IMG/VR virus record: IMGVR_UViG_3300024581_002882
Source: a virus
Direction: 5' to 3' (one strand)
DNA: 64,000 bases
Positions within the stretch are counted from its first letter, which is position 1. Each line of letters starts with the position of its first letter. The notes below the pieces were generated by a model. That model made no database searches and was not told the DNA's origin. It saw only the letters and a list, made by a program, of their open reading frames with translations. Shown here in pieces: positions 23,534 to 42,849 of this stretch. The position numbers and the translations under genes are program-made.

Positions 23534-23728
23534 ATGAATACAGAAAATATTTCATCAGTTAGAGTAGTTTACCTATTCCTTGCTTTTATACTAACTTTTA
23601 GTTGGCTTGTACAGTCGTGGGGATTAGTCTTATTTGTATGTGCAATGTTATGCTTTGCGGTGCTTACAAAATTTTGCCCTTCAAAGTGGTTTTTTGAAAA
23701 AATAGGATTTAAGAAAACAGATATATGA
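23534..23728 (+). CDS. small 2-TM membrane protein (DUF2892/YgaP-like)
   Basis: two hydrophobic helices then TKFCPSKWFFEKIG. Confidence 0.6.
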   Translation: MNTENISSVRVVYLFLAFILTFSWLVQSWGLVLFVCAMLCFAVLTKFCPSKWFFEKIGFKKTDI

Positions 23729-24186
23729 AAAAAATAATAATTGGCGGTGCTTTCTTATTTGGTGGCTATTGGCTTATAAAAAACTTTCTAAATAAAGGTT
23801 TTGGCGATATTCAAAAGCCTGAATTGGTTTTTAAGCCTAAAGATACTGAACTTATTGGTACTTTAGAAGATGGTACTGAACTCCGAGCTACGTTAGAAGA
23901 TAGACAGCTTTCATACGATAAAATTAGGGATTTACAAGATAATGGTGTTTTTAGCCAAAGATTATTTAAAGATGATTTTACAGCAGAAAATACAAAAGGT
24001 CTTGTAAATAGCCCAATATTTAAACAGCTACAAGGTATAAAGCCATATAGCATTGATTATACAGCTTTAAATAATTTAGGCAAAGTAGGTACTTTGGATT
24101 TAGGTTTTCCAAGCCCTGAAGAAATGGCTTTAGCAATAGAAAAATATAAAACGGGAACACCAACACAACCAACATGGAGTAGGTAA
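23725..24186 (+). CDS. N-terminally anchored membrane protein (paralogue 1)
   Basis: MKKIIIGGAFLFGGYWLIKNFLNK. Confidence 0.75.
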   Translation: MKKIIIGGAFLFGGYWLIKNFLNKGFGDIQKPELVFKPKDTELIGTLEDGTELRATLEDRQLSYDKIRDLQDNGVFSQRLFKDDFTAENTKGLVNSPIFKQLQGIKPYSIDYTALNNLGKVGTLDLGFPSPEEMALAIEKYKTGTPTQPTWSR

Positions 24187-24521
24187 TGAAAACAAAAAAC
24201 TTAATATTAGGCGTTGCTTTCTTATTTGGTGGCTATTGGCTTATCAAAAACTTTTTGAATAAAAGGGTGGAAGCTGAAAAACCCGAAATTCAACTTCCTG
24301 AAACACCTGAAGAAGAAAAGAAAATGTTAAAGGTTAGAGAGTCTATTTATAAGTGGGATATGGATTATGGTGCTTGTTATGGGCAAATAAAGGGTTTGGG
24401 TGGTTGCGGAAACCCACTTGGCAATAACATAAAAATTGATTGGACTCAAAGTGATTTTAAGATTACACCTGAACAGCAAAAATTAATAAAAGAAGCTATT
24501 GAAAAAGCTAAGTTGAAGTAG
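24186..24521 (+). CDS. N-terminally anchored membrane protein (paralogue 2)
   Basis: MKTKNLILGVAFLFGGYWLIKNFLNKRVEAEKPEI. Confidence 0.75.
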   Translation: MKTKNLILGVAFLFGGYWLIKNFLNKRVEAEKPEIQLPETPEEEKKMLKVRESIYKWDMDYGACYGQIKGLGGCGNPLGNNIKIDWTQSDFKITPEQQKLIKEAIEKAKLK

Positions 24522-24524
24522 ATT

Positions 24525-24827
24525 ATGAAAAAAAAGAATTTAATTTTTGGCAGTTTATTTCTTATTGGCGGATTTTGGCTTGTCAGAAACTTTTTAAATA
24601 AAAAAGTGGAAGCTGAAAAACCCGAAATAGAATTACCCGAAACATCCGAAGAAGAATTAAAATCTAAAAAATCAAGAGAAAACCTGTATAGAATGTACCT
24701 TGTAGATGCAACACCAACGCATAGCGGTGGCACATTAAACCCATATCAAGGTGAGGTAACAAACCAAATGGTAAATAATTGGCTCATGCACCTAAGTCAG
24801 GGTGGCGGTACAGGATTTGTCGGATAA
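24525..24827 (+). CDS. N-terminally anchored membrane protein (paralogue 3)
   Basis: MKKKNLIFGSLFLIGGFWLVRNFLNKKVEAEKPEI. Confidence 0.75.
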   Translation: MKKKNLIFGSLFLIGGFWLVRNFLNKKVEAEKPEIELPETSEEELKSKKSRENLYRMYLVDATPTHSGGTLNPYQGEVTNQMVNNWLMHLSQGGGTGFVG

Positions 24828-24841
24828 CTAAAACATATATT

Positions 24842-25102
24842 ATGAAAAAAATAATTTTAATACTTTCACTTTTCGCAATTACAAGTTGTGGCAGTTCAAA
24901 AGTCATACACGAAAAAGACATAACCAAACAAGCCCAATGGTTAGAATCTACAGAGGACAACCCAATAATTAATGTAATTCAGAAAGCTTATAAAAATCAC
25001 GATGTAGAAATTGTGATTAAAAAAAAACTAACAACCGATTACGTTAAATTAAGGTTAAGAAATGGTAAACGTATCATAAAGAAAACTACAGAAAAGAATT
25101 AA
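24842..25102 (+). CDS. lipoprotein
   Basis: MKKIILILSLFAITSC lipobox; start reassigned to ATG 24842. Confidence 0.7.
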   Translation: MKKIILILSLFAITSCGSSKVIHEKDITKQAQWLESTEDNPIINVIQKAYKNHDVEIVIKKKLTTDYVKLRLRNGKRIIKKTTEKN

Positions 25103-25116
25103 TTCGATTAAAATTA

Positions 25117-25144
25117 TTATTTATTAAAATAATAATTATATTTG
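25117..25144 (+). promoter_or_regulatory. near-palindromic site (25117-25132) and -7 box TATATTTG (25137-25144)
   Basis: intergenic, 33 bp upstream of ORF 25178. Confidence 0.55.
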
Positions 25145-25177
25145 TATCATACATAAATTTTATAACTTTTAAACTAA

Positions 25178-25687: not shown

Positions 25688-25695
25688 ATGAATGA

Positions 25696-26112
25696 ATGAA
25701 GCGTAGCGGAAGGAAAAGTAAAGCACAAACACCTGCCCCTAAAAAGGACAGGATAAAGGGTTCAAAAATAAACCCAAAGGGTAGTGCTAAAAGTCGAACC
25801 TCTGCTCGTTCAATTTCATTTTCAGCAACAACTTTAGATAAAATTAAATCTAAGGTAAAAGAATATAACTCCAAGAACTCTAAAAAGATAACAGTACCAA
25901 CTGCAAAAGCGGTTGTTCGTAGGGGTATGGGTGCTTATTCAACATCTTATAGACCTACAATTAAGGGTGGCAAACCAAATAGCAGAACAGCGTGGGGCTT
26001 GGCAAGGCTTAACGCTTTTATGCGTAAAAAAAGTGGTTCTGAAACAGCAAATGGTGTTGTTTCTAAAAGTAGAATAAAAAAAGCATATACACAGGATAAC
26101 GACCTTTTATAA
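25696..26112 (+). CDS. highly basic putative DNA-binding/core protein
   Basis: K/R/S-rich; KAVVRRGMGAY...AWGLARLNAF resembles a small family I recall from giant viruses (DUF5824-like, unverified). Confidence 0.5.
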   Translation: MKRSGRKSKAQTPAPKKDRIKGSKINPKGSAKSRTSARSISFSATTLDKIKSKVKEYNSKNSKKITVPTAKAVVRRGMGAYSTSYRPTIKGGKPNSRTAWGLARLNAFMRKKSGSETANGVVSKSRIKKAYTQDNDLL

Positions 26113-26405
26113 TGGCTTATAGAATAACAGATTATACCAAAGCACAAGCAAAAAAACTTGGTGTTGAAGTAAAGCCCTCAAAAACAAAGGGTAAAAAAAT
26201 TGATGTATTCAAAAAAGGTAAAAAAGTTGCTTCTGTTGGTGCTATTGGATATAAAGACTACCCAACTTATATGAACCTTGAAAAAAGGGGATATTATGAT
26301 AAGGGTTATGCAAGTAAAAGGAGAAGGCTTTACAAAATTAGACATAAAAAAGACAGGAATGTAAAAGGTAGTGCAGGTTATTACGCAGATAGATTATTAT
26401 GGTAG
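26112..26405 (+). CDS. highly basic putative DNA-binding/core protein
   Basis: SVGAIGYKDYPTY...RRRLYKIRH...SAGYYADRLLW resembles a family I recall from giant viruses (DUF5754-like, unverified). Confidence 0.55.
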   Translation: MAYRITDYTKAQAKKLGVEVKPSKTKGKKIDVFKKGKKVASVGAIGYKDYPTYMNLEKRGYYDKGYASKRRRLYKIRHKKDRNVKGSAGYYADRLLW

Positions 26406-27501: not shown

Positions 27502-27839
27502 TGGAAAATCAAGCTACAAATCAAGGTGCAGAAACTAATGGTGCTGAAGCAGTATCAACTCAAGACACAGCAGGGGTGGTAGAAAATACCAACCCATCTG
27601 AAACCTCATCAAACTTTGAGGAAGGCGGAGAGTTAAAAAAGGGCGGAGAATATAGCCTTGTTTATCTTTTAACCTTTGCTCTTTTGATTTCAGCTTCTGC
27701 ATATAGCATTTACTATCATCGTCAAGCCATGAATAAGCTAATGGATGATGACAACGATGAACTAAAAAGACAAGTTAGAGAAGTGAAAACAAATCTTAAA
27801 AAATTGATGGGAAATAAGTATGAAATTATCTCTAAATAA
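27501..27839 (+). CDS. single-pass membrane protein
   Basis: acidic N-terminus with FEEGG/LKKGG, TM, short coiled coil. Confidence 0.7.
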   Translation: MENQATNQGAETNGAEAVSTQDTAGVVENTNPSETSSNFEEGGELKKGGEYSLVYLLTFALLISASAYSIYYHRQAMNKLMDDDNDELKRQVREVKTNLKKLMGNKYEIISK

Positions 27840-28470
27840 TATTACTTACGGAAATCCAACGCTAAAGCAAAAGGAGTTTTTATCTAAAACTTGCCTTGTT
27901 AGTGATTTATACCCAAAACTTAAAGATTTTCCATGTCCTGAAAATGAAAGCGACAGCACAAAACAGGAATTAAACGAACTAATGGAATTTGCGAAAGACA
28001 TTCAGCTTGATGACAACGAAAAATTCAAGAAAAGATTTGTCTTTTATGATAAAAACTTATTTCAGGCAATTTCAAACTCTTTTAAAACCGAAAAAGCAGA
28101 TATAGACCAACTAATTAAAGATATTGATGAGGATATAACCCCGTTAATTGTTAGGCTTAAATACAACTATCAAAGACCAAGACCTTATCAACTTGCACAA
28201 TATTACAAGCTAAAATTGTTTCCGTTTAGTTCAACATCAGCACATTCACCATCTTATCCGAGTGGACATACGATACAGGCTTATGTTATGCTTACTGTAA
28301 TTGGTAATCTAATACCTGAATTTTACGAAAAAGCAAAAAAAATGATTGAAGATGTGGCATATAGTAGATGCTATATAGGTGTACACTATCCCACAGATAA
28401 TGACTTTGCTTATCAAGTAGCCCAAGAAATACTAAAACACCCTGATTTTGCAAAAAAATATGGAATATGA
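27820..28470 (+). CDS. PAP2-superfamily phosphatase / haloperoxidase-like protein
   Basis: KYNYQRPRP, YPSGH and SRCYIGVHYPTD, the three canonical PAP2 motifs. Confidence 0.88.
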   Translation: MKLSLNNITYGNPTLKQKEFLSKTCLVSDLYPKLKDFPCPENESDSTKQELNELMEFAKDIQLDDNEKFKKRFVFYDKNLFQAISNSFKTEKADIDQLIKDIDEDITPLIVRLKYNYQRPRPYQLAQYYKLKLFPFSSTSAHSPSYPSGHTIQAYVMLTVIGNLIPEFYEKAKKMIEDVAYSRCYIGVHYPTDNDFAYQVAQEILKHPDFAKKYGI

Positions 28471-28864: not shown

Positions 28865-29444
28865 TTTATCAAAGACACAGTATCAAAATCTATTTAAAGA
28901 GTTTGCTTACTTTACCAAAGATTATGGCATGAAGCCATTACTTTATCAGCTTTATGTTTTAAATAATTCAAGAGAAAACTTTGACACGAAAGGTGTTGAA
29001 GATGAGTTACTTATGTTAGAACTAAGCAAATCATTTCAGAATTATGGAGTTGAATTTACCACACTTTTTTTTCAAACAAATAAAACTAAAATGTTTAACT
29101 TTGAATCAGAAAGTAACTCGGCATTAAACGAAAAGGTTTTTGAAATTGTTTGTAGAGTTTTTAAAACAACAAAAGATGCTATTCTTGAAAAGTTTGACAG
29201 AGATGGAATACGGGTTTACGCAAGTGGAAGTTTGTTTAAATTGTTTATAGATACTTGCGGTTATAGTGTGGATGAGGTTGTTTCTTTAACAGGGAAGCCT
29301 AAAAGCATTATTAGTCGCCATAAAAACATTATAACAAATTTGGATTACAAACATATACATGACAAAAAAGTTGTTGTGAAATTTATAAACGCTAAAAAAC
29401 AATTAATTAAATATATATTAGATGAGTACCGACAAGAAAACTAA
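28848..29444 (+). CDS. hypothetical protein, possible C-terminal HTH
   Basis: SVDEVVSLTGKPKSIISRH helix-turn-helix-like pattern. Confidence 0.4.
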   Translation: MTQVSNLSKTQYQNLFKEFAYFTKDYGMKPLLYQLYVLNNSRENFDTKGVEDELLMLELSKSFQNYGVEFTTLFFQTNKTKMFNFESESNSALNEKVFEIVCRVFKTTKDAILEKFDRDGIRVYASGSLFKLFIDTCGYSVDEVVSLTGKPKSIISRHKNIITNLDYKHIHDKKVVVKFINAKKQLIKYILDEYRQEN

Positions 29445-30411
29445 TTCAGACGTAGAAGAAGTAGAATTTGAAGAAGTAAATTCTATAGATTCAGACCCTT
29501 TATTTTCTCCCTTTGACGAGCCTGTCAAAGAAAGGGAATACACCAAGCCAAATATAGATACCTCACAGATTGAGGGGGAGTTGGAAGAACCAACATTTAC
29601 ACCGCCAAGCTTTTCAGACTTTGAAGATGAAGAAGTTGAAGAAAAACCTTTTAATCCAAGCTACAATGAGTTAGGTAAAAAGGAAAAGAAGATGGGTGCT
29701 GAAATGATTGCTGATGTTGTCATTGATGGATATTCTCGCTTAAAAAAGGGAATGGGTTCACTTTCTTCTATTAGCGAAAACAAATTAGAAAGAGAATTTG
29801 CAGAGGGCAATATAAACCCAAACATTCAATTGCCAATTGATGAACATGGAAATACTGCATCAATTAGAGAATTTGTAAAAGAGTTTAACGAAACAGGCAA
29901 AGAAGCTTTTGACACCCCTGAAGATTTCAAAGAAAAAGTAAAACCGCCTCTTGTTCGTGTTTTTGAAAAACGTGGAGTAGGCATGACAGATGAACAGCTA
30001 CTTTTGTACTATTTTGGTACTGACTTTGCAACAGCAGGTGTTACAGCTTTTGGTCTTAAAAAATCAGCAGATGGTATTTTGAAACAATTAAGAGAGCAAA
30101 CAGACTTAATGCGTTCTCCAATGACACCACCACCTGCACCTAAAAAAGAACAAACACAGGCATCAACAGATGTTTCTGAAAATGAAACAGAATTTGAAGA
30201 ACCTGAAGAAGTTTTTGAGGTTCAGCCCGATATAGTTGCACCTAAAAAGCAAAGCAATTCTAACTTCACAAGTGATGCTGAAGTTCCAAGCAATATGCCT
30301 GAATTTGGAGACCCAAGCACACTAAAAGAGATTGAAAAAATTGCATCTAAAGAAGCCAACTCTAACCCTAAGCCAAAAGGTAAAAGAGGGCGACCAAGAA
30401 AAAATAAATAA
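29422..30411 (+). CDS. acidic, Pro-rich protein upstream of the packaging ATPase
   Basis: 329 aa, central weakly hydrophobic helix, basic tail KPKGKRGRPRK. Confidence 0.65.
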   Translation: MSTDKKTNSDVEEVEFEEVNSIDSDPLFSPFDEPVKEREYTKPNIDTSQIEGELEEPTFTPPSFSDFEDEEVEEKPFNPSYNELGKKEKKMGAEMIADVVIDGYSRLKKGMGSLSSISENKLEREFAEGNINPNIQLPIDEHGNTASIREFVKEFNETGKEAFDTPEDFKEKVKPPLVRVFEKRGVGMTDEQLLLYYFGTDFATAGVTAFGLKKSADGILKQLREQTDLMRSPMTPPPAPKKEQTQASTDVSENETEFEEPEEVFEVQPDIVAPKKQSNSNFTSDAEVPSNMPEFGDPSTLKEIEKIASKEANSNPKPKGKRGRPRKNK

Positions 30412-30423: not shown

Positions 30424-30588
30424 ATGGCTAATAAAAAACATGAGTATATATCAGATATAACTTCTATGGATTTTATATTCTTAAGAACTATAACAAAATC
30501 AGATGATTGCATAACTTTTAATGCAATTACATTAGATAATCAGGAGTTTTACGGAGAAGAAACTTCTATAAAATATGAAACAAAATGA
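30424..30588 (+). CDS. 54-aa hypothetical protein
   Basis: read by eye; ATGA overlap with the ATPase start. Confidence 0.45.
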   Translation: MANKKHEYISDITSMDFIFLRTITKSDDCITFNAITLDNQEFYGEETSIKYETK

Positions 30589-31397
30589 GAGAACCAAAAT
30601 TAGGAGTAGCAGTAGGTAAAAAGGGTGTTGGAAAAACATACACAACTAATCAGGTTATTGATAGTTACGTTAAGGGAAATCCCCAAAAAGGTGTTAAACC
30701 AAGAAGGGCTTTAATTCTTGATGTGAACGATGAATTTGAGCATATTAAAGCGTTAAGCCTTAAAGACGTAATGAAGTTTTCAGTACACCCAACTATTGAG
30801 GCGAGAAGAATAAGACCTTTTATGGAAGATGGTCAAAGAATGACAATAAGGGAAATTCAAGAAACACTTTTTGCTATTCTTAAAGATTACAGGGGTGGGC
30901 TTTTATTAATTGAGGACATAAATAGATATATTTCTGACCAATTACCAAACGATGTTGTAGGTGCAATATGCACAAACAGACACGCTGATACAGACATAAT
31001 TCTTCACTTTCAATCTATTGGTAGGGTAACAACTAAAATTTGGCAAAACTTAAATTGGTTGCGTTTTCACAAAAACACAGATAGTGTTGATAGACATAAA
31101 CATAAGTTTGAAGATAAGTTTGAATATCTTAAAATTGCTGAAATTTTAGTAAACCATAAATACTATAATGGAGATGAAAGATATTACCTATATGTAGATA
31201 TAGATAGTGAAAAGATTATGGGAAATGTAAGCAAAAAAGATTTAGACTTTGCTATTGAAGAATACATTTCAAAATACTACAAAAAAATCGTAACACCCTT
31301 GCTTAACCAAATGGGTATGGATGGAAAGAAAAAATATACACCCGAAAAGGCGATAAAAGAGATAAAAAGTAAGATTTATAAGAATTTTACACGATAA
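30585..31397 (+). CDS. FtsK/HerA-superfamily (A32/P9-like) genome-packaging ATPase
   Basis: VAVGKKGVGKT (Walker A), ALILDVNDEF, LLLIED (Walker B), TNRHADTDIILHFQS (RH...Q motif); about 270 aa; adjacent to the capsid candidate. Confidence 0.75.
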   Translation: MREPKLGVAVGKKGVGKTYTTNQVIDSYVKGNPQKGVKPRRALILDVNDEFEHIKALSLKDVMKFSVHPTIEARRIRPFMEDGQRMTIREIQETLFAILKDYRGGLLLIEDINRYISDQLPNDVVGAICTNRHADTDIILHFQSIGRVTTKIWQNLNWLRFHKNTDSVDRHKHKFEDKFEYLKIAEILVNHKYYNGDERYYLYVDIDSEKIMGNVSKKDLDFAIEEYISKYYKKIVTPLLNQMGMDGKKKYTPEKAIKEIKSKIYKNFTR

Positions 31398-31463: not shown

Positions 31464-31471
31464 TATATTTG
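31464..31471 (+). promoter_or_regulatory. -7 promoter box for the capsid transcript
   Basis: TATATTTG. Confidence 0.6.
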
Positions 31472-31507
31472 AAGCGTAAATGGTTCTGTAACCGTTTGCG
31501 TTTTTTT
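31472..31507 (+). terminator. intrinsic terminator-like hairpin after the ATPase
   Basis: AAGCGTAAATGGTT-CTGT-AACCGTTTGCGTTT (14-bp stem with G-U pairs) plus T tract. Confidence 0.6.
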
Positions 31508-31533: not shown

Positions 31534-31662
31534 ATGAATACCAAAGTGCTTTTAGAGTTTGGAAAGCAAGTTTTAACTGTCGCTGTTGGAGTTGCTGTGT
31601 ATAACGCAGTAAAACCAATGCTCGATAAGGCTAAACTTTCTGCACCAAGTTCAGACGAATAG
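31534..31662 (+). CDS. 42-aa membrane protein co-transcribed with the capsid gene
   Basis: MNTKVLLEFGKQVLTVAVGVAVYNAVKPMLDKAKLSAPSSDE; read by eye. Confidence 0.65.
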   Translation: MNTKVLLEFGKQVLTVAVGVAVYNAVKPMLDKAKLSAPSSDE

Positions 31663-32490: not shown

Positions 32491-32874
32491 ATGGATGTAT
32501 ATAACTACATAGCAAATACAAACCCCCACAAGGCTCAAGATATTATAAACAGCTTTGGGTATAAGGTTGTAGATAAAAAGAACATGGGTGGTAACTTAAA
32601 ATCACTTGTTGCTAAAGAAGGCGAACCTGCCCTTAAAATGGTTTTAGAAAATCATCCTGACAAAGAAGTTATTTTAGAACTATATAGCCCAACAGCAGAT
32701 GGCAAACACTATTCTTGTGGCTGTAATGAATGTAATGAAAAAAGAATGGTAGAAAAATTCTTAAACGCAAGTGGAAAAGAAAGTTCAGAAGCTAAAAAAG
32801 TGGACAGCAACTTTTCTTTAGTTTTTCTTGCAGGGGTTTTAGTTTTATCATTTGCAATATTATCAAAAAATTAA
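32491..32874 (+). CDS. C-terminally anchored membrane protein (NAxG family)
   Basis: helical N-domain, FLNASG, TM, KN tail. Confidence 0.7.
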   Translation: MDVYNYIANTNPHKAQDIINSFGYKVVDKKNMGGNLKSLVAKEGEPALKMVLENHPDKEVILELYSPTADGKHYSCGCNECNEKRMVEKFLNASGKESSEAKKVDSNFSLVFLAGVLVLSFAILSKN

Positions 32875-33480: not shown

Positions 33481-34125
33481 ATGGCAAATCAACAACAACT
33501 ACAAAACTTAGGTAATGCAATAGGATATATTGCTGTTGCAGACATTAATGGACTTCGCAATTTGCTTTCAAAATATGGCGTTGTAAATGTAGGTAGTGAT
33601 TCTAAAACTCTTATTACTGAAACAACAAACTTAGTGTCGAACTCACGTTTCTACAATGAATTTGTTGCTTTAGTTCAAAAAAACTTAGGCGAAGCTTCAT
33701 TTTCAGGTTATAATAATATTGGTGGAGACTATGGCTCTTGGCAACCTTCAAGTGATAGCCTTTTAAATTCAAATACTTTAAACCAAAAACTAACCGATGT
33801 TAAATCACCCTCAAATAGTGGTGGCGGATTTTTTAGTGGAATAAATTTAGGTTCATTAATAAATACGGGGGCATCAATTTATGGAAGTGTAACTGCGGAT
33901 AAAAGACAAAAAGACCTATTAAACGCACAAGCAAATCAACAAGCACAGCAAACACAAAGTCAAATATTGGCAGGACAATTAGCTTTAGAACAAGAAAAGC
34001 TTAAACTTGCTCAAATACAAGCACAAAACGAAAAAGGGGGTTCTAATACACTTCTTTATGTTGGTTTAGGTCTTGTAGGACTTCTTGTTGTTGGTGGTGT
34101 TATTTATGCAGTTACTAAAAAATAA
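33481..34125 (+). CDS. C-terminally anchored membrane protein (NAxG family)
   Basis: GNAIG..D..GLRNLL..YGV N-domain; YNNIGG; GGFFSGINLGSLIN; coiled coil; TM plus KK; start reassigned to 33481. Confidence 0.75.
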   Translation: MANQQQLQNLGNAIGYIAVADINGLRNLLSKYGVVNVGSDSKTLITETTNLVSNSRFYNEFVALVQKNLGEASFSGYNNIGGDYGSWQPSSDSLLNSNTLNQKLTDVKSPSNSGGGFFSGINLGSLINTGASIYGSVTADKRQKDLLNAQANQQAQQTQSQILAGQLALEQEKLKLAQIQAQNEKGGSNTLLYVGLGLVGLLVVGGVIYAVTKK

Positions 34126-34370: not shown

Positions 34371-34775
34371 ATGAATTATAATAATTTTGCAGAACCACCT
34401 CAATATATTTTTTTTAAACCAAATAAAGGTAGCCTTTTAGATAGTGCTACATTAGACCAAAGGCTTAAAGAAATAAAATCAGGTTCAGGTGGTTTTAATA
34501 GCCCTGTTGGTGTTACACCCGATAAATATAAAGGATTAAATAATAATAGTACAGCATCTGATAACAGTCAAAAACAACCTGTAGATGCAGATGTTTTGGG
34601 TTCTTATGCAAAACAAGGTGCATGGGTTGGAAACGCATTAGGAGATGTTATAGCTTTAGCTTATGCTTTTAAAACAAAGTCAGGCTTTTGGAAGGGCTTT
34701 GGATATGTCCTTTTAGGTGGATTAACAGGTGGGGCTTTAGGCTTCGGTGTTGGTTCTCTAATAAAGAAAAAATAA
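34371..34775 (+). CDS. 2-TM glycine-zipper membrane protein
   Basis: starts MNYNNF; LLGGLTGGALGFGVG. Confidence 0.7.
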   Translation: MNYNNFAEPPQYIFFKPNKGSLLDSATLDQRLKEIKSGSGGFNSPVGVTPDKYKGLNNNSTASDNSQKQPVDADVLGSYAKQGAWVGNALGDVIALAYAFKTKSGFWKGFGYVLLGGLTGGALGFGVGSLIKKK

Positions 34776-34780: not shown

Positions 34781-35044
34781 ATGAATTATAATAATTTTGT
34801 ACCAAAAGAGAATCGTTTCGGTATTAATATACCCTTTGATATGATGCCCGATAAAGGTTACAATCCTGTTCAACCTAAAAAGGAATTGATGGATGAAATG
34901 GAAGAAAAAGCTAAACGCAATGCAGAAGAAACTATAAAATTTTTTAAAGCAAAAAAAGATAAAGAAAAAAATAAAAAAATTATTTTATACGTTGCTATTG
35001 CAGTAACAGGTTTTTTTGCTTATAAAAAACTCTTTAAAAAATAA
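34781..35044 (+). CDS. C-terminally anchored membrane protein
   Basis: starts MNYNNF (start reassigned to 34781); TM plus KKLFKK. Confidence 0.7.
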   Translation: MNYNNFVPKENRFGINIPFDMMPDKGYNPVQPKKELMDEMEEKAKRNAEETIKFFKAKKDKEKNKKIILYVAIAVTGFFAYKKLFKK

Positions 35045-35209: not shown

Positions 35210-35212
35210 TAA

Positions 35213-35335: not shown

Positions 35336-35599
35336 ATGGAGAAATCAGCTAATCAGCTTTGGAGAGAAAGCGGAACTTCTCTTTCTTTTAAGGATTGGAT
35401 TCAAAGAGAGAAAGATAAAGGAGTACAAATTAAAAATAAACTTCTCGAAGATGTGGTTGGTTCTGTAAAAGAAACTAATCAAAAAGACACAAATACAATA
35501 AAAAGATTTGATTTTGGAGTGCCAAAGTGGGTTATTTACACAGGTGCTTCGGTTTTAACTTTTGCTATTGTATATAAATTATATAAAGCCAAAAAATGA
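35336..35599 (+). CDS. C-terminally anchored membrane protein
   Basis: TM plus YKLYKAKK. Confidence 0.7.
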   Translation: MEKSANQLWRESGTSLSFKDWIQREKDKGVQIKNKLLEDVVGSVKETNQKDTNTIKRFDFGVPKWVIYTGASVLTFAIVYKLYKAKK

Positions 35600-36384
35600 A
35601 CCTAAGAGTAACAACGAGATATGAAGAACTTTCGTTGGCTGTTTACGTTCAAACCCTTACTCCTTGTAAAATAAGAATTAAGGTTTTTGATGCGGAACAA
35701 CCAAAAACTGTTTTTACAGACAGGTATAAAACCGTAAAAGGAAGCGAAGTTTTTTATGTTCGTATGCCTTTAAGTTCAAATCAGGTTATTGTAAGCGTTT
35801 ACAATGAAGCTGTAGGCAACAGACGTAAAGGAGAGGACAGTAGCTTTACCATAACACAGGTAAAGAAATTGCCTTTAGAAAAAAGAACAGATGTGGGGGA
35901 TATTCGTGATTATACGGTTTCCTCTTTTGTGGATTTTGCACAAAGGTTTTCTTTTAACGCATCTTATTTAGATGCTGATAAAACCTATCAGAGTTCAAGT
36001 GGTGAATTTCTTATTGAGTATTTACCATACATAACAAGTTCTAAAACGGGTCAAAAATTAAAAACACCTGCCCGTATTTCTAAGGTAAATGGTAGGATTC
36101 AGGTTTCAAAAGAAGCCTTTGATAACTATACTGTGCCTATGCGTATGGCTATTTTGCTACATGAGTTTTCTCATTTTTATCTAAATGATAATATGGATGA
36201 CGAAGTAGAGGCTGACCTTAATGGGCTTTTAATTTATTTAGGGTTGGGTTATCCTCGAATTGAGGGTTATCAAGCGTTTTTAGAAGTGTTTCAGGACACA
36301 CCTTCGCAACAAAATAAAAACCGTTATGATATAATTAATAAGTTCATAAGGGATTTTGAAAAGAATAAAATGGTAATGAACTAA
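35596..36384 (+). CDS. zincin metalloprotease (HExxH plus downstream E) with N-terminal beta domain
   Basis: AILLHEFSHF...DEVEADLNG, an M48/gluzincin-like arrangement. Confidence 0.8.
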   Translation: MNLRVTTRYEELSLAVYVQTLTPCKIRIKVFDAEQPKTVFTDRYKTVKGSEVFYVRMPLSSNQVIVSVYNEAVGNRRKGEDSSFTITQVKKLPLEKRTDVGDIRDYTVSSFVDFAQRFSFNASYLDADKTYQSSSGEFLIEYLPYITSSKTGQKLKTPARISKVNGRIQVSKEAFDNYTVPMRMAILLHEFSHFYLNDNMDDEVEADLNGLLIYLGLGYPRIEGYQAFLEVFQDTPSQQNKNRYDIINKFIRDFEKNKMVMN

Positions 36385-36395
36385 AAATTTTAATT

Positions 36396-36524
36396 ATGGC
36401 AAATGCATATATGACAGCACTAAACAAAGCCCGTAAAAGCGGTGCTTCTTCTTTTAAGTATAACGGAAAAACTTATAAAAGGGCGAAAACTAAAACAGGT
36501 ATGGTAATCTATAAAGCAGGATAA
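36396..36524 (+). CDS. 42-aa basic protein (possible DNA-binding core protein)
   Basis: MANAYMTALNKARKSGASSFKYNGKTYKRAKTKTGMVIYKAG; read by eye. Confidence 0.6.
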   Translation: MANAYMTALNKARKSGASSFKYNGKTYKRAKTKTGMVIYKAG

Positions 36525-36525
36525 A

Positions 36526-36966
36526 ATGAAAAAGAACAAAATATTTATTGGTTTAGCTGTAGGTATAGGTGTTTACTTACTTTGGAATCTCAAAAGAAAA
36601 AAATCATCAGGTGTTGTTGAACAGGTTAAAGAAACTGTAAAACAAACAGTACAGCCAAGCAGTAAACCAAGCAGTAAAATGGTATATAGAGGTATTGTGA
36701 AACATTCTGCCCCCGCAGGTGTAAACACTTATCTTTATGGGTTTCAATCATTAATGTCTATAACTCGTGGAAAAGCAGAATATAGCGATATTTTTGCAAC
36801 AAGTAGTAGATTAAAAGCAACACAAACTGATAATTTCTTTTTAAGAGATTCAAAAGGAAATGATTACACAATTATAGGTGTAAATAATTCAGGTGTTTAT
36901 ATAAAAGGAAATAAAAAAGCAGATTTCCCAATTGGTTCACAATTTGAAATTAGAAAAATAGCATAA
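36526..36966 (+). CDS. N-terminally anchored membrane protein
   Basis: IFIGLAVGIGVYLLWNLKRKK. Confidence 0.7.
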   Translation: MKKNKIFIGLAVGIGVYLLWNLKRKKSSGVVEQVKETVKQTVQPSSKPSSKMVYRGIVKHSAPAGVNTYLYGFQSLMSITRGKAEYSDIFATSSRLKATQTDNFFLRDSKGNDYTIIGVNNSGVYIKGNKKADFPIGSQFEIRKIA

Positions 36967-36967
36967 A

Positions 36968-37990
36968 ATGAAAAATAAAGCCTTAATATATGGTGCTTTA
37001 GGTATTGTGGGTTACTTCGGTTATAAAAAATATACTGAAAAAACACCTATCAAAGGCACTTCAGATAAAACGACTGATGATTTGAAGGAACGTATTAAAA
37101 TGTTAGAAAATACGGCAAGAGAATTAGACAGTAAATCGAAATCAGAACTTTCTAAACTTAAAAAAGAAATTGAAAGACGAGAAGCAGAAAAACAAAAACG
37201 TCTTGCAGAAATAGAAAGATTAAAAGGTTCTAAAACTTCTGATGATATTTTAAAACAACAAAATGCTGATTTGTTGCGTAAGATTGCTCAACTTGAAAAG
37301 GAAATGGGCTTGAGAGATGCAGAAAACAAAAGGATTCTATCAGACAAAGAAAAAGAATTAAGAGACCAAATTGCAAAATTAAAAGCTACAATAACAACTA
37401 AAGAAGATTTGATTGAATCTATAAATGCTAAAAGAGAAGCAAAGGTTGAAATGGAAAGATTAAGAACTCTTGAAGATTTCATCGGAAATGAACAAGATGT
37501 TATAGATAGACTAACCAAAACACTTGATGGAATTGACACTTCAACTAAATCAGGTCAAGAAAGAGCAAAAGTATATATTGACCTTATCAAAAAAACAGAA
37601 GATAGAAAAGTCAAGAAAGCCACAGATACACGAACTATACTTGAATTAGGTTTGGGTAGAACGGGGTATCAACAATTATTGCCAAAAGCAAATTGGACTT
37701 TAAATGATTTGTTAGACGATTCTAAACACATTCAAGTTTTTGATAGATTTTCAAAATATGGAGAAAGGGCTTATTATGAGTTTTATCCCGTTGATGCAAA
37801 TGTAGAATTAGCTAAGAAAGGTAATTGGACTTCTATGCTTGTACATGAAGATGTCGTAACTAAAAAATTAAGCCCACCTAAAATTGTAAATGTTTGGAAT
37901 GACACAAAAGAAAAAGCTATTCTTTCAACTGTAGCAAGAGACCCAAGACGTTATGAGGTAAGGATATTTGGTAAAACTTTAGATAAATAA
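36968..37990 (+). CDS. N-terminally anchored long coiled-coil protein
   Basis: TM then about 180 aa of heptads. Confidence 0.7.
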   Translation: MKNKALIYGALGIVGYFGYKKYTEKTPIKGTSDKTTDDLKERIKMLENTARELDSKSKSELSKLKKEIERREAEKQKRLAEIERLKGSKTSDDILKQQNADLLRKIAQLEKEMGLRDAENKRILSDKEKELRDQIAKLKATITTKEDLIESINAKREAKVEMERLRTLEDFIGNEQDVIDRLTKTLDGIDTSTKSGQERAKVYIDLIKKTEDRKVKKATDTRTILELGLGRTGYQQLLPKANWTLNDLLDDSKHIQVFDRFSKYGERAYYEFYPVDANVELAKKGNWTSMLVHEDVVTKKLSPPKIVNVWNDTKEKAILSTVARDPRRYEVRIFGKTLDK

Positions 37991-37996
37991 AGCGGT

Positions 37997-38566
37997 ATGA
38001 AAAATAAAAAATTAATTATTGGGTTAGGATTGGGAGTAGGTGCTTACCTACTTTGGAAGCTTAATAGAAAGAAATCAATAGATGCTGTTGAAGAAGTAAA
38101 AGAAACAGTTGAATCCATCTCTGAAACAGGTGAAACAAAAACTTATTTCAAATCAAAAGATGGTAGAGTTTTGCAATGTGCAAATGGCACAATTGGTGGT
38201 ACAAAAGAAAATCCAACAGATAGCTGTTATCAAACAGGTGGTGTTAAGCCATCAAAAACCACATTATCAAACGAACAAGTTGTAGCCCTATTTAAAAGAG
38301 CAAATAACTATTACAGGGGTGGTGCAAGACCTACTCAAGCACTTATTGACAGAATAAATAAGGATAGAATGGAAGCCTTAAAAGAGGTTGAGCAGAGAGG
38401 TCTTATGTCAGGTTTTAAGTCTTGGAAAGCGGGTGAAGATGCTAAAAATAAATATAATTTATATCCATCAGCACCATCAAAATCTACTGCTGTTTTAATA
38501 AAAAACAAAGAATTATCAACTATGCCTTATGGGAAACCCATAATGTTAGGAATAAATAGAATTTAA
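37997..38566 (+). CDS. N-terminally anchored membrane protein (anchor paralogous to 36526)
   Basis: LIIGLGLGVGAYLLWKLNRKKS..VE.VKETV. Confidence 0.7.
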   Translation: MKNKKLIIGLGLGVGAYLLWKLNRKKSIDAVEEVKETVESISETGETKTYFKSKDGRVLQCANGTIGGTKENPTDSCYQTGGVKPSKTTLSNEQVVALFKRANNYYRGGARPTQALIDRINKDRMEALKEVEQRGLMSGFKSWKAGEDAKNKYNLYPSAPSKSTAVLIKNKELSTMPYGKPIMLGINRI

Positions 38567-38576
38567 TTTTAAAAAC

Positions 38577-38825
38577 ATGAAAAAAGATGCAGTATTAACG
38601 CTGTTGGCAGGACTAACGATTTTCTTGCTATTTAAACAGTACGGAAAAAAGAAGCCATGTGGTTGTAAAGATAAAGCTAAAGTCGAACCCGAAAGCGAAG
38701 ATGACAAGGCTTGTGAAGAAGCGGTGGATATGATTATCAATGAAAGAACAAAAACAATGAGAATTACATCTGAAGCGTTAGAAAAAATGAGAGCAGAAGA
38801 ATTAGAAAAATGTAAAAACGCTTAA
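38577..38825 (+). CDS. N-terminally anchored membrane protein
   Basis: TM then KKKPCGC. Confidence 0.65.
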   Translation: MKKDAVLTLLAGLTIFLLFKQYGKKKPCGCKDKAKVEPESEDDKACEEAVDMIINERTKTMRITSEALEKMRAEELEKCKNA

Positions 38826-38827
38826 AT

Positions 38828-39262: not shown

Positions 39263-39268
39263 ACAGAT

Positions 39269-39754
39269 ATGACAAGACAACAAAAAATATTGGTTTATAG
39301 TTTTCTAAGCTTAACGGGGGTTTCTTATTTTGTTTATAGGGGTGTAAGAAGAAGGCAATCTTTTAATGAGTTGATGGCAATAATATCAAAATCAAGTGGT
39401 GGCACATCTTCTAAAACAAAACTTCGTGATGCGTTAGAGGGTAAGTTAGAGGAAAAAATATCTATACAAAACCCTAATAAAAATTATTTCAGACTTTCTG
39501 ATGGGCTTGTTCAAAGCTATTCTTCAGAACTTAATGATGCCATGAGTGGGTGGGGTACTGATGAAGATAAAATAGAATCTGTTTTATCAGGCTTAAAAGA
39601 TAAAGTTCAGGTAAGCCAAATTGCATCATATTACAAATCTGTTTATAACAAGACACTTTATACTCATTTGCTAAGTGAACTTTCAACAACAGATTTTAAT
39701 AATATTGTAGTTCAACAAATAACAAAAATACCCGATGTAAGATGGAAAGCATAA
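39269..39754 (+). CDS. membrane-anchored protein with an annexin repeat
   Basis: LNDAMSGWGTDEDKIESVL...IASYYKSVYNKTLYTHLLSELS. Confidence 0.75.
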   Translation: MTRQQKILVYSFLSLTGVSYFVYRGVRRRQSFNELMAIISKSSGGTSSKTKLRDALEGKLEEKISIQNPNKNYFRLSDGLVQSYSSELNDAMSGWGTDEDKIESVLSGLKDKVQVSQIASYYKSVYNKTLYTHLLSELSTTDFNNIVVQQITKIPDVRWKA

Positions 39755-40242: not shown

Positions 40243-40656
40243 ATGGGTTACTATGATTACATAAAGGGTAAAAACAAGGCTACACAGGAGTTAAGGACAA
40301 TCTCCCCAAAATATAAGCCTACTAAAGCCTGTGAAACAGCAAGAAAATACAAAGAAGAACTTGCTGTAATTGTTCCTGATTTATCTAAAAAGGCAATAAA
40401 TAATGATTATTGGAGTGGCTACTTAGAGGTTTATAAAAAAAGAAAAGGAGATGTAGATGCTTATTACAATTTTGGAGACTGTGATAATTATTTTGACAGA
40501 AAAAAATTAAAAGAAGTTGGAAAAATTGTAGATGCTGAATCTAAAAAATATGAAGAAATAGTTTCTGCACAAACAAGTAAACAAAATAAAACTGTTCTAT
40601 TTGTTGGAACAGCAATAATGTTAGTCGGATTGGTAATTATTCTTAAAAAGAAATGA
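40243..40656 (+). CDS. C-terminally anchored membrane protein
   Basis: Cys pair, TM plus KKK. Confidence 0.65.
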   Translation: MGYYDYIKGKNKATQELRTISPKYKPTKACETARKYKEELAVIVPDLSKKAINNDYWSGYLEVYKKRKGDVDAYYNFGDCDNYFDRKKLKEVGKIVDAESKKYEEIVSAQTSKQNKTVLFVGTAIMLVGLVIILKKK

Positions 40657-41084
40657 GTTTTTTTAAAGACATAAGGGATGAATTTGAGTATAAGAAACAG
40701 GCTCAAAGAAACGAATCTGTGTTAGCTTCGGCAACAGTTAGAACTGACAGCGTTACCAACAGGTGTATTGATATAGACAGAAAAATAAAAGACTATGATG
40801 TTCTTATTGCTGATTTAAGTAAAAGAAACATAAAAAGAAATATTTACGGAGATTTAATAAGGCAATACTCCGATAAAAGAAAAGCCTTACAGCTTGATTT
40901 TATTAATCTTAAATGCGTTGATAAAATTGAGCAAAAAAAACTATTAGAAAGTGCTGATGTTTTAGGAACAGGTTTTTCTCAATACGAGCAAGACGTTCTT
41001 GAAAAATCAAGAAAAGAACAAAATAAACTTTACTTCATTGGGGGTGGGGCTTTATTATTAGGATTATACCTTATTGTAAAATGA
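40653..41084 (+). CDS. C-terminally anchored membrane protein
   Basis: Cys pair, helical, C-terminal TM. Confidence 0.65.
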   Translation: MSFFKDIRDEFEYKKQAQRNESVLASATVRTDSVTNRCIDIDRKIKDYDVLIADLSKRNIKRNIYGDLIRQYSDKRKALQLDFINLKCVDKIEQKKLLESADVLGTGFSQYEQDVLEKSRKEQNKLYFIGGGALLLGLYLIVK

Positions 41085-41290
41085 AAGAAAGTTATAGATA
41101 TAGAGGAATTTACGATGAAGGTGAATTAGGAAGAATAAACGATGTGCTTAAAACACAGAGGGAATTATTCCTTGAAGAAGAAGAAAAACAAGATACAACA
41201 AAAGACAAAGTTGGTAAATACTTTTTAGTTTTAGTTGGTCTTGGAACAATTATACTATTAACAAAATTAGTTTCAAAATGGAAGAAGTAA
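41081..41290 (+). CDS. C-terminally anchored membrane protein
   Basis: 69 aa, TM. Confidence 0.6.
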   Translation: MKESYRYRGIYDEGELGRINDVLKTQRELFLEEEEKQDTTKDKVGKYFLVLVGLGTIILLTKLVSKWKK

Positions 41291-41586
41291 ATAACATTTT
41301 AAATCCACCACAAAATAACGATTGGGCTGAAAACGACAATTTTGCACAAAAAACTGTTGCTAAAGGCGAGGGTATTGTAAAAGAAGTTATTGATGGTGCT
41401 AAAGAAACAGTAAATCTTGCTGTTGAAGAAGTAAAAACTATTGCACCTGATGTTGCTGATGTATTTGAGGAATCTTCAGAACGTCTTAATGCAAAACCAA
41501 GAGTTGTAGATGCTATACCAAACAATTTATTAATTTTTGGTGTTTTAGCTTTAACGGGGTATGTAATAGTTAAGAAAGTTTTATAG
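41278..41586 (+). CDS. C-terminally anchored membrane protein
   Basis: acidic body, TM plus KKVL. Confidence 0.65.
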   Translation: MEEVNNILNPPQNNDWAENDNFAQKTVAKGEGIVKEVIDGAKETVNLAVEEVKTIAPDVADVFEESSERLNAKPRVVDAIPNNLLIFGVLALTGYVIVKKVL

Positions 41587-42149
41587 TGAAAAAACTCTTA
41601 GTGCTTGGTGGTTTAGCTTCAATAGGCTATGCTTTTTATTATTATTTTAAAAAGCAAGTTTCCCTTGTAATGAATTTTGATTACAGGATAAAAGATGCTA
41701 AAATTCTAAATCTAACAAAAGATGGTGCTAAATTAGATGTGGCTGTTCAGGTTACAAATAAATCATCTTTAGGCGTTGATATATTAGGATATGACTTAAC
41801 ATTCAAGTACAAGGGCGTTGAACTTGGTAAAACACAAAGCAATCAATCATTTAGGGTAAATCCTGATAGTAGTTTTATTGTACAAGCTTTGGGTGATGTA
41901 AGTTTTAAAAACGCAAAAACTGTTTTACTTCCATTTGTAAAAGATATAATTAACAGGAAACCAATACAAATAGAGCTTCAAGGGTTTTTAAATGTTGAGT
42001 TTTCAGGATTAAGCCGAAAGGTTGAGTTCAATAATGAGCAAATAACTTATTCAAAGGATTTGTTAGTAGATGTAGGTCTTGATGATGAATTTGAAAAAGG
42101 TAAAACAAAAATAGGCGATATTTTAGGTAAAATTGGAATAAAAATTTAA
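41586..42149 (+). CDS. LEA_2/WHy-domain protein with N-terminal TM
   Basis: LDVAVQVTNKSSLGVDILGYDLTFKYKGVELGK...VNPDSSFIV. Confidence 0.75.
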   Translation: MKKLLVLGGLASIGYAFYYYFKKQVSLVMNFDYRIKDAKILNLTKDGAKLDVAVQVTNKSSLGVDILGYDLTFKYKGVELGKTQSNQSFRVNPDSSFIVQALGDVSFKNAKTVLLPFVKDIINRKPIQIELQGFLNVEFSGLSRKVEFNNEQITYSKDLLVDVGLDDEFEKGKTKIGDILGKIGIKI

Positions 42150-42173
42150 TTTTACAAAAGAAACTTTTTACAC

Positions 42174-42569
42174 ATGGTACAACAGATAACAAGTAAAATT
42201 ATGCTTGGTGGAATATGTAAATATGCAAATTTATATCAAGCAGAAGAAAAAGAAGTTCAAATCAGGGTTACAAAAGACCAAAATAGCGGTCTAAATTATG
42301 AAATTTGTCAAGATTGGCAACCAAAAGAAAAGGTTACTTTCAAAGACATTTTGAATAAAAAAATTGACATTCTTGGCTATGAGCAATTAGCAACGCCCTT
42401 TTTAATTAAGTCAATAGACTTATACCAAAAGGAATTTAGCTTAGAAGATGGTAAAACGAGTATATTTCTCTTTAACAGAAACAACAAAGTTGGTTTAGCT
42501 GTTTTTGAAGAAAAAAAGAATTTAAAATTAATAACATTGTCAAAACATTTTGAGCAATTAGGTTTATAA
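42174..42569 (+). CDS. hypothetical protein
   Basis: 131-aa ORF. Confidence 0.6.
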   Translation: MVQQITSKIMLGGICKYANLYQAEEKEVQIRVTKDQNSGLNYEICQDWQPKEKVTFKDILNKKIDILGYEQLATPFLIKSIDLYQKEFSLEDGKTSIFLFNRNNKVGLAVFEEKKNLKLITLSKHFEQLGL

Positions 42570-42570
42570 C

Positions 42571-42849
42571 ATGGCGACTACAAGACGAAAAACAGTAAAT
42601 GTAAGCAATGATGACATAAATTGGATTAAAGACCAATTACTTGAACAGCACACCGTTTTGATGAAGCTGAATCAAACCATCATTGGAGACAAGGAATACG
42701 GTCAAAAAGGTCTTGTAGAGCAGGTAAATGAACACAGGCATTATATCCGTAAAGACCAAAATTTAAAAGCTAAATTTGTTGGTGGTACTACTGTTGTTGG
42801 TGTTGTTTGGACTTTATTGTTAAAATTTTGGGATAAAATATTTGCATAA
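42571..42849 (+). CDS. coiled-coil plus C-terminal TM protein (XhlA/holin-like architecture)
   Basis: helical body, GQKGLVEQV, C-terminal hydrophobic helix. Confidence 0.45.
   Translation: MATTRRKTVNVSNDDINWIKDQLLEQHTVLMKLNQTIIGDKEYGQKGLVEQVNEHRHYIRKDQNLKAKFVGGTTVVGVVWTLLLKFWDKIFA

Follow-up and report, generated by a model that had tools for sequence, protein, structure and literature searches.

Why does an uncultured aquatic virus, probably of Bacteroidota, encode a long run of small membrane proteins around a packaging ATPase and a capsid gene, and are these proteins part of its particle? We analysed this question in a 64,000-nt stretch of DNA (the window; GC 32%), in which the run occupies positions 23534-42849.

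Composition of the block and types of anchor

The block consists of 46 abutting genes on the plus strand (18,927 of 19,316 nt coding), with 35 of 45 junctions within 15 nt, and 45 of them were also found by a second, independent gene caller. The first-pass annotation had counted 33 small membrane proteins here and about 40 in the window. Using a hydrophobicity predictor (Zhao-London scale, 15-residue window), we found 30 TM proteins in the block at a threshold of 0.8 and 33 at 0.7; at 0.72 there were 32, the capsid gene being left out, and the weak but conserved 42-aa product of 31534 (genes are named by the first coordinate in Table 1) brought these to 33. Residue-shuffled block proteins gave 4.6 +/- 2.0 calls, with a maximum of 11. 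Of the 102 genes in the window as a whole, 44-45 encode TM proteins, and 34 of these proteins are small with a single terminal anchor; both earlier counts were thus confirmed. The 32 TM proteins have a median length of 120 aa, and 13 genes within the block are soluble.

Each protein had been described as having one terminal helix flanked by Lys clusters. The basic flanks held up, with at least two K/R residues on one side of the helix in 31 of 32 proteins and on both sides in 25, but the uniform architecture did not: 24842 is a lipoprotein and not a single-pass protein because it has a lipobox, 23534, 34132 and probably 34371 are hairpins of two helices, and the helix is internal or near-terminal in 27501 and 38828. 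The tiny ORFs 26969, 31534, 35081 and 35213, which the annotation had added, are genuine genes, conserved and under purifying selection (pN/pS of 0.15-0.51 against the closest genome; Table 1). With a strict heuristic pattern and host proteins as control, a cleavage site (AxA/Q) or lipobox after the helix was detected in 1% of 307 N-anchored proteins from related loci compared to 49% of 74 host proteins; in the block it was present in one of ten (24842). This pattern supports Gly-rich anchors rather than Bacteroidota signal peptides at the N termini, so that the objection anticipated earlier, cleaved signal peptides, does not apply. About half of the array anchors are C-terminal. Tail-anchored proteins, which are rare and poorly understood in bacteria (PMC6794478), make up approximately 30% of genes, in comparison to 0.3% (1/372) in the host control, and each genome of the lineage has 18-24 of them.

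The array has a two-tier organisation. About 13 families form a conserved, mostly tail-anchored core (31534, 32491, 32880/33481, 34132, 35081, 35336, 26969, 27115, 27501, 40653, 41586, 42571), and the remainder reuses one anchor on variable cargo; about half of the membrane proteins are strain-variable, and 34781, for example, is absent from a close strain. The paralogues 23725, 24186 and 24525 are 76-78% identical over the first 90 nt and 24-40% over nt 180-270; similarly, 36526 and 37997 share 77% identity in their anchors and 27% in their cargo. Cargo on the reused anchor includes annexin, peptidoglycan-binding and LEA_2 domains and, in relatives, a tail-anchored transglycosylase; recognised envelope-directed cargo comprises peptidoglycan binding, transglycosylase, GH108 and collagen. 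Searches of Pfam and PHROGs assigned neither the capsid nor the core TM proteins to a family (domain matches are in Table 1). A single superfamily of core proteins is unsupported, because the 32491 profile did not match 32880, 33481 or 51682, and the modelled 32491 had no clear fold relative, its SAP/LEM likeness being below significance.

Table 1. Features of the block and of related genes elsewhere in the window.
Feature	Position	Strand	Evidence
Two-helix membrane protein, 64 aa, accessory; no homologue found	23534..23728	+	Gene absent in close strain (contig skips 23524-23725)
Three paralogous N-anchored proteins: common anchor, divergent cargo	23725-24186, 24186-24521, 24525-24827	+	
Lipoprotein with lipobox, 86 aa	24842..25102	+	
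Tail-anchored, charged helical stalk, 169 aa	25178..25687	+	pN/pS 0.20
C-anchored protein, 69 aa	26760..26969	+	
C-anchored core protein, 48 aa	26969..27115	+	28 loci; pN/pS 0.15
Tail-anchored core protein, CarboxypepD_reg-like domain, 128 aa	27115..27501	+	Pfam PF13715 E 1e-12; 28 loci
Core protein, internal helix then coiled coil, 112 aa	27501..27839	+	31 loci
Soluble PAP2-superfamily phosphatase	27820..28470	+	33 loci
Acidic soluble protein, 329 aa, always upstream of ATPase	29422..30411	+	34 loci; also L096, L097
FtsK/HerA (A32/P9-like) packaging ATPase	30585..31397	+	Walker A, Walker B, Arg finger, Gln sensor
TAnnTTTG Bacteroidota-type -7 promoter element	31464..31471	+	36/36 loci vs 12% background
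15-bp hairpin, 3' of promoter element	31471-31504	+	
Hydrophobic protein, 42 aa, immediately 5' of capsid gene	31534..31662	+	pN/pS 0.19
Single-jelly-roll major capsid protein candidate, 229 aa	31711..32400	+	AF2 pLDDT 87.8; pN/pS 0.07
Tail-anchored core protein, 127 aa: 5-helix domain, invariant NxxG, anchor	32491..32874	+	36/36 loci
Two paralogous tail-anchored core proteins	32880-33479, 33481-34125	+	
Two-helix (Gly-zipper-like) core protein, 77 aa	34132..34365	+	31 loci
Two accessory C-anchored proteins, N-terminus MNYNNF in both	34371-34775, 34781-35044	+	
Single-pass core protein, 42 aa	35081..35209	+	24 loci; pN/pS 0.21
Single-pass protein, 33 aa	35213..35314	+	8 loci by BLAST; pN/pS 0.51
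Tail-anchored core protein, 87 aa	35336..35599	+	31 loci
Soluble HExxH zincin-like protein, 262 aa, highly conserved	35596..36384	+	31 loci; pN/pS 0.08; also L095-L097
Four variable N-anchored proteins: 36526, 36968, 37997, 38577	36526..38825	+	
Near-C-terminal anchor, 144 aa	38828..39262	+	
N-anchored protein with annexin repeat, 161 aa	39269..39754	+	Pfam PF00191 E 2e-7
N-anchored, weak peptidoglycan-binding domain, 166 aa	39742..40242	+	PF01471 E 0.04; clusters with 63388
Four tail-anchored proteins: 40243, 40653, 41081, 41278	40243..41586	+	
N-anchored LEA_2-domain core protein, 187 aa, GTG start	41586..42149	+	PF03168 E 2e-8; 6/6 genomes; L097
Tail-anchored core protein, 92 aa, strongly conserved	42571..42849	+	pN/pS 0.06; 6/6 genomes
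Second, smaller anchored block: 51682, 52230, 52583, 53454, 53858	51682..54106	+	Around short capsid paralogue
53454: tail-anchored LRAT/NlpC-P60-like	within 51682..54106	+	PF04970 E 7e-7
Short capsid paralogue	52937-53461	+	E 1e-12
N-anchored DUF2272/CHAP-like envelope-acting protein	62713-63381	-	
N-anchored peptidoglycan-binding envelope-acting protein	63388-63807	-	PF01471 E 4e-7

The packaging ATPase, the capsid candidate and their lineage

The array was said to flank an ATPase-capsid pair, and this arrangement, the array around a packaging ATPase and a jelly-roll gene, was recovered in 36 of 36 IMG/VR loci and also in three distant relatives. The lineage has genomes that are 79-132 kb long when complete, with 51-82 TM proteins. 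Terminase (PF03237, PF04466) was found in none of four IMG/VR genomes nor on a 132-kb contig, and did turn up on another contig of the same MAG; portal (PF04860) was absent from the same five genomes, and, as to an HK97-fold capsid protein, no capsid family was among the PHROG/Pfam matches listed for 67 window proteins. The ATPase motifs are invariant across 24 sequences. Its best profile relative was P23-77 ORF13 (hhalign probability 87.5, E 3.6e-6, 144 columns), with 44.6% for PM2 P9 and only 6.5% for PRD1 P9.

The capsid candidate was modelled by AF2 as one beta-sandwich (residues 47-200; one profile domain), preceded by an N-terminal helix and a flexible arm with two FxNAxG motifs. Its 229 residues thus have the single-jelly-roll fold of Helvetiavirae/Singelaviria, and not the double jelly roll of Tectiviridae (PRD1 type). 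The gene is the most conserved (72-95% identity), has the strongest codon bias in the window and its own promoter, and is the one full capsid gene in the operon; the shorter 52937 paralogue, without the first strands, lies 21 kb away in 6 of 6 genomes. A 37-64-aa hydrophobic ORF stands 5' of the capsid gene in all 36 relatives. Against VP16 and VP17 of P23-77, both single-sequence targets, hhalign detected no profile similarity (probabilities of 0.1 and 0.5), and VP16/VP17-type chains were absent among the best 50 of either VIA list. PDB sequence searches gave nothing significant, and Foldseek PDB/BFVD and the Atlas returned for the capsid only generic jelly-roll or low-TM matches, in which no Helvetiavirae capsid chain was listed, though such a relationship may exist. 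Complex prediction for capsid and 32491 scored 0.05 (mark 0.32) and gave no verdict either way. A Sigma-70 promoter scan was below shuffle expectation and uninformative, and the distant tandem jelly roll P0181/L099 was set aside as it lies outside any TM array.

Comparison with known internal-membrane viruses

By the same method, PRD1, PM2, FLiP, P23-77, SH1 and SSIP-1 have 5-14 TM proteins, compared to 44 in the window and 51-82 per genome here, three to six times as many as in PRD1. The earlier suggestion that characterised internal-membrane viruses are exceeded therefore stands for number but not for density: TM proteins account for 43% of genes in the window and 45% genome-wide in PRD1 (Fisher p=1), and for 65% both in the array (30/46) and in the PRD1 late block (13/20). 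'Denser than PRD1' was rejected, and only the number is exceptional. In tailed phages, TM proteins are 10-19% of genes, few as had been stated.

PRD1 (Tectiviridae) resembles this virus in having small TM genes (P7/P14, P11, P16, P18, P20, P22, P32, P34) packed just as densely into its late block, a tiny hydrophobic gene immediately before the capsid gene (P20; here 31534), Gly-rich anchors between basic residues (P11, P16), a membrane-anchored transglycosylase (P7; here in relatives) and an FtsK-type packaging ATPase. In PRD1, however, the capsid protein is a double jelly roll of 395 aa, the genome measures 15 kb, and almost all of the 13-16 TM proteins have their anchor at the N terminus; here a 229-aa single jelly roll is combined with 79-132 kb, paralogous anchor cassettes and 51-82 TM proteins, 18-24 of them tail-anchored. 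We found no sequence homology to PRD1. Tectiviridae have genomes of ~15 kb with a protein-primed PolB and terminal protein; the relatives here reach 79-132 kb, and the best 25 Pfam/PHROG matches listed for the window included no PolB, while a replication initiator and RecT were found there. P23-77 (Matshushitaviridae; Helvetiavirae, realm Singelaviria) has the closest packaging ATPase, a single-jelly-roll fold and, behind its capsid genes, a series of small TM genes (14/37), but two adjacent major capsid proteins, where here one major gene has its shorter paralogue 21 kb away, and a 17-kb circular genome. The nearest anchor style is that of a 44-kb tailless internal-membrane virus of a hypersaline host, with eight Gly-rich tail-anchored proteins with basic tails and possibly a single-jelly-roll capsid (PMC6260650); it differs in having 13 TM proteins in all and a circular genome, and its gp44/gp40 showed no detectable homology beyond Walker A. 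PM2 (Corticoviridae), with tail-anchored capsid-membrane linkers P3 and P8, and FLiP (Finnlakeviridae), which infects Flavobacterium, are also aquatic internal-membrane phages, but with double jelly rolls, 9-10 kb genomes and 5-7 TM proteins.

A putative particle-building operon

The block is probably the operon that builds the particle of a tailless virus infecting aquatic Bacteroidota, with a large (~80-130 kb), apparently linear dsDNA genome; the anchored proteins would sit in the virion, as protein component of a lipid membrane inside the shell and as entry apparatus. The scheme proposed here is modelled by analogy on PRD1. The proteins would enter the inner membrane of the host with no signal peptide being cleaved off, most soluble domains remaining cytoplasmic, those of tail anchors because of their construction and those of N-anchors because more Lys follows the helix than precedes it. 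A virus-specific membrane patch would pinch off, with the single-jelly-roll protein assembling on its cytoplasmic face. The ~13 core families may supply capsid-membrane tethers, an ATPase packaging pore and membrane-remodelling parts; the product of 31534 is a candidate major membrane protein and that of 29422 a candidate packaging accessory. In the variable remainder, one Gly-rich, Tyr/Lys-capped anchor would serve as a cassette showing exchangeable cargo (peptidoglycan-binding, lytic, annexin, collagen) that helps the virus to penetrate the envelope and adapt to its hosts. From its HExxH motif, 35596 is a candidate maturation protease, and, more speculatively, an F/Y-x-N-A-x-G motif that the capsid arm shares with some membrane proteins could be a cleavage or docking site, possibly for this zincin.

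It is rather unlikely that the conserved core alone forms the virion membrane and that the variable N-anchored half stays unpackaged, acting in the inner membrane of the infected cell (superinfection exclusion, counter-defence, membrane remodelling for assembly). High turnover, gene loss and average codon use of this half would fit, PRD1 P10 is a precedent as a non-structural membrane protein (PMC6356626), and T4 and crAss001 encode 22-28 TM proteins without a virion membrane; however, the variable genes lie between core genes of the late operon and are translationally coupled to them, their products carry the core anchor signature (Tyr at -4, basic exit), and their recognisable cargo is envelope-directed. 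It seems improbable that a jelly-roll nucleocapsid is wrapped in an outer envelope or a pleomorphic vesicle, in which case the cytoplasmic domains would face capsid or DNA from outside instead of lying between the shell and an inner membrane.

We consider it very unlikely that a tailed phage or plasmid-like element with unrecognised head genes is involved, in which the jelly roll would serve as a decoration protein or lectin and the membrane proteins would be accessory. The window does contain S74-chaperone fibre genes, RecT and a lambdoid-type replication initiator, the ATPase weakly matches a terminase PHROG (E 4.5e-7), and feature neighbours in the Atlas are labelled Uroviricota. Against this stand the matchless terminase (PF03237, PF04466) and portal (PF04860) searches in five genomes, which did detect these families on the other MAG contig, the conservation, codon bias and own promoter of the jelly-roll gene, and the 270-aa ATPase itself, which has FtsK-type Arg finger and Gln sensor motifs and no space for a nuclease domain. 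Practically negligible is the chance that short ORFs arising at random in AT-rich sequence produced the array, or that it consists of ordinary secreted proteins whose signal peptides are cleaved; the GC content and the lipobox of 24842 could be read that way, but seamless tiling, purifying selection, conservation in 36 loci, the shuffle control and the C-terminal position of half of the anchors argue against it.

Beyond the particle-building operon, we propose only tentatively an abundant, hitherto undescribed lineage of large tailless viruses of aquatic Bacteroidota with linear genomes, outside current Varidnaviria/Singelaviria taxa, with one single-jelly-roll protein over a membrane of 40-70 different proteins, a portable anchor cassette with exchangeable cargo and its own zinc protease, which would mature the capsid arm as well as membrane proteins at an FxNAxG site common to both; if true, poxvirus-like virion-membrane complexity would exist in a bacterial virus. 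Few internal-membrane phages have been characterised, and they are small (9-44 kb). Should the proteins described here belong to the virion, the PRD1-type design would reach genomes of 80-130 kb and a membrane proteome of several times the size, and a bacterial virus would employ ~20 tail-anchored proteins. Non-tailed particles may outnumber tailed ones in aquatic samples (PMC13552765), and the analysis gives targets: Bacteroidota as hosts, particles that are sensitive to chloroform, and a list of predicted virion peptides to look for by environmental proteomics. We found no description of this lineage in the literature, the moraphages (PMC12619734) being unrelated T4-like tailed phages. The lineage is common; tblastn with capsid and ATPase gave no match among the 50,697 phage records of INPHARED. 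The RNA runs hold contigs only, are unfit to rank genes, and gaps in their cover prove nothing. The stretch was present in estuarine, freshwater and marine runs, and the capsid sequences formed 1,660 clusters at 90% identity and 562 at 50%.

The membrane protein gene array

The stretch at 23534-42849 (+) holds 46 tiled genes and is 98% coding, and 45 of the genes (named by start coordinate) were recovered unaided by a simple independent gene caller. Transmembrane (TM) helices were called with the Zhao-London hydrophobicity scale in a 15-residue window; a TM-like helix was found in 30 genes at a threshold of 0.8 and in 33 at 0.7, compared to 4.6 ± 2.0 (maximum 11) in residue-shuffled array proteins. 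As a control, the predictor was run on the 31 annotated proteins of PRD1; it called 16 of them, among which were P7/P14, P11, P16, P18, P20, P22, P32 and P34, and passed over the capsid, penton and spike proteins. At least two K/R residues flanked 31 of 32 array helices on one side and 25 on both. The tiny ORFs 26969, 31534, 35081 and 35213 had uncorrected pN/pS values of 0.15, 0.19, 0.21 and 0.51 against a relative with a 94% identical capsid, and a 31534-like ORF lies upstream of the capsid gene in 36/36 relatives; all four are genes. The dense array of small membrane proteins described in the first-pass annotation was thus confirmed by tiling, helix counts and pN/pS, and there is next to no chance that it is an artefact. 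The lipoprotein 24842, the hairpins 23534 and 34132, and probably 34371, also a hairpin, depart from the single-pass pattern.

Full-length 20-kb capsid loci of relatives contained 25-39 TM genes among 42-52, and the layout was repeated at loci of capsid homologues with 44, 38 and 30% identity, in the order small hydrophobic gene, capsid, tail-anchored 32491 and 32880 homologues, hairpin protein, zincin and N-anchored run. The array is a trait of the lineage. Between the ATPase and capsid genes many relatives (including genomes G002-G004 and G006) carry a variable 1.5-3.5-kb insert, absent in the window, with lysis-like genes (holin-like, GH108 or peptidase, anchored proteins).

Anchors, shared motif and cargo

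N-terminal anchors of 307 proteins from related loci were compared to 74 Sediminibacterium proteins (host sample, 400 kb). Gly content was 0.16 versus 0.05, a Y/F four residues ahead of the basic exit occurred in 55% versus 14%, and a cleavage or lipobox pattern in 1% versus 49%; K/R excess lay after rather than before the helix in 224 versus 25 N-anchors (host, 33 versus 17). These features indicate that the N-anchors are not signal peptides. Tail-anchored proteins accounted for 30% of array genes and 28% of those at related loci, compared to 1/372 host genes, 0-1% in tailed phages and 11-14% in SSIP-1, PM2 and FLiP. The N- and C-anchors had a signature in common (Lys, Gly-rich aliphatic core, Tyr, Lys cluster), and the anchors of PRD1 P11 and P16 and the tail anchors of SSIP-1 resemble them. 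In bacteria, tail-anchored proteins form a small class about which little is understood, and their insertion is possible without Sec or YidC (PMC6794478).

The motif [FY]x[NS][AV]xG was counted 79 times in TM proteins (5.3 when shuffled); the 31 capsid proteins had 47 occurrences (0.8 when shuffled), and the remaining proteins showed no excess (12 versus 8.9). Across the 32491 family, the disordered linker is variable apart from the invariant residues N92 and G95. Since the motif is present in only 2-4 TM proteins per genome, it does not characterise the array as a whole. More speculatively, it could be cleaved by the conserved zincin 35596 or dock on the capsid.

Clustering of 1,231 TM proteins with their anchors masked gave 495 clusters, of which 372 were singletons. 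In each genome, 12-14 genes, mostly tail-anchored, belonged to families found in at least five of six genomes, and 19-38 TM genes were unique among the six, the largest class being N-anchored. Window paralogues were 76-78% identical over the first 90 nt and 24-40% over the cargo, and close strains lack the whole genes 23534 and 34781. Among the cargo domains, the annexin repeat is best known from eukaryotes. Genes with lipid-related functions (see table) lie together with those for membrane proteins. Relatives additionally carry collagen, GH108 and a lytic transglycosylase (PDB 9udh, E 7e-32), the last tail-anchored in 16/16 loci. Such a muralytic domain would lie in the cytoplasm of the cell that makes it and could work only when carried by a particle; PRD1 P7 is likewise a transglycosylase with a TM helix.

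Features of the window and its relatives (G, genomes; L, loci)
Position	Strand	Feature	Reading
7426-9646, 11836-23531		Upstream of array: polyvalent proteins (ART-PolyVal, RelA/SpoT), two-component system	
25696-26405, 36396-36524	+	Three small soluble proteins, all very basic and conserved in relatives (26112, 26 loci; 36396, 23 loci)	Candidate DNA-condensing core proteins
27115		CarboxypepD_reg-like cargo, TM-anchored	
27820-28470		PAP2 phosphatase	Lipid-related
31464-31504	+	TAnnTTTG, then directly 15-bp hairpin with T run, at expected capsid mRNA 5' end	Candidate mRNA stabiliser or attenuator
39269-39754	+	Annexin repeat, membrane-anchored; also in relatives	
39742 (weak match), 63388		Peptidoglycan-binding cargo	
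41586-42149		LEA_2 cargo	Lipid-related
42571-42849	+	92-aa tail-anchored coiled coil; pN/pS 0.06, constraint like capsid's	Could be holin-like or core virion protein
52937-53461	+	Shorter paralogue of the capsid, covering profile positions 88-189, in 6/6 genomes; adjoins a pair of spike-like genes	Candidate penton or vertex protein
53454-53861		Tail-anchored LRAT/NlpC-P60-like cargo	Lipid-related
62713		DUF2272/CHAP-like cargo	
G002 63107-69576; L028:357-2651; L014:14882-16752		3-8 tandem genes, near-identical N-terminal anchors, differing cargo	Anchor cassette amplified locally
G004 17225-18418; L094:10001-11194		397-aa gene, two tandem capsid jelly rolls (E about 1e-45 to 1e-47 each half); in some members additional to normal capsid gene; more short paralogues in G004	Possibly independent single-to-double jelly-roll duplication
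L097:3043-3291 (distant relative)		Acyl-carrier-like protein	Lipid-related

Comparison with known viruses and proposed role

Under a single method, TM genes numbered 44/102 in the window and 54/131, 59/156, 51/189, 62/155 and 82/255 in related genomes. Internal-membrane viruses gave 13/29 (PRD1), 14/37 (P23-77), 7/18 (FLiP), 5/21 (PM2), 8/48 (SH1) and 13/69 (SSIP-1), and tailed phages 28/284 (T4), 22/115 (crAss001) and 10/99 (phi38:1). The window fraction differed from tailed phages (p 6e-12). It did not differ from PRD1 (p 1), and the late block of PRD1 has the same density (13/20) as the array (30/46). The suggestion of more membrane proteins than in internal-membrane bacterial viruses therefore held for number (44 in the window, 51-82 per genome) but not for density. 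The accompanying reading as a virion membrane is partly supported.

Virus-encoded membrane proteins of PRD1 insert into the cytoplasmic membrane of the host; a pinched-off patch of it becomes the support on which the capsid forms, and DNA is packaged by the ATPase (PMC6356626). About half of the PRD1 membrane is protein; P16 links it with the vertices, P20 and P22 act at the packaging vertex, and the delivery tube takes its shape from P7/P14, P18 and P32 (PMC3782422). By analogy, the array would work like the membrane module of PRD1, P23-77 or SSIP-1. Probably, core families would serve tethering, pore formation and remodelling and variable cassettes entry and host adaptation, with lysis left to a separate holin-amidase pair (1857-2985). 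Action of the variable proteins in the host membrane is unlikely; an outer envelope is less likely still, and an unrecognised tailed phage is very improbable.

Tectivirus or corticovirus identity was ruled out by the single jelly roll and genome size. Singelaviria are defined by vertical single-jelly-roll capsids (PMC12714852), and capsid fold and ATPase make the virus a candidate member. On capsid homology, hhalign gave prob 0.1 and 0.5 against single VP16- and VP17-type sequences; on paired capsid genes, the operon has one full gene, and the shorter paralogue lies 21 kb away. Our literature search found no description of this lineage. In the 132,486-bp viral contig G006:C9 (JBBAJS010000009.1), binned in a Sediminibacterium MAG, tandem repeats of the 11-nt GTGGGAATTTC are confined to the two ends (locus L065, 1-400; locus L071, last 400 nt), inverted in orientation with 3 and 7 copies, as in telomere-like ends of a linear genome. 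G-rich repeats also terminate genomes G001, G002 and G003.
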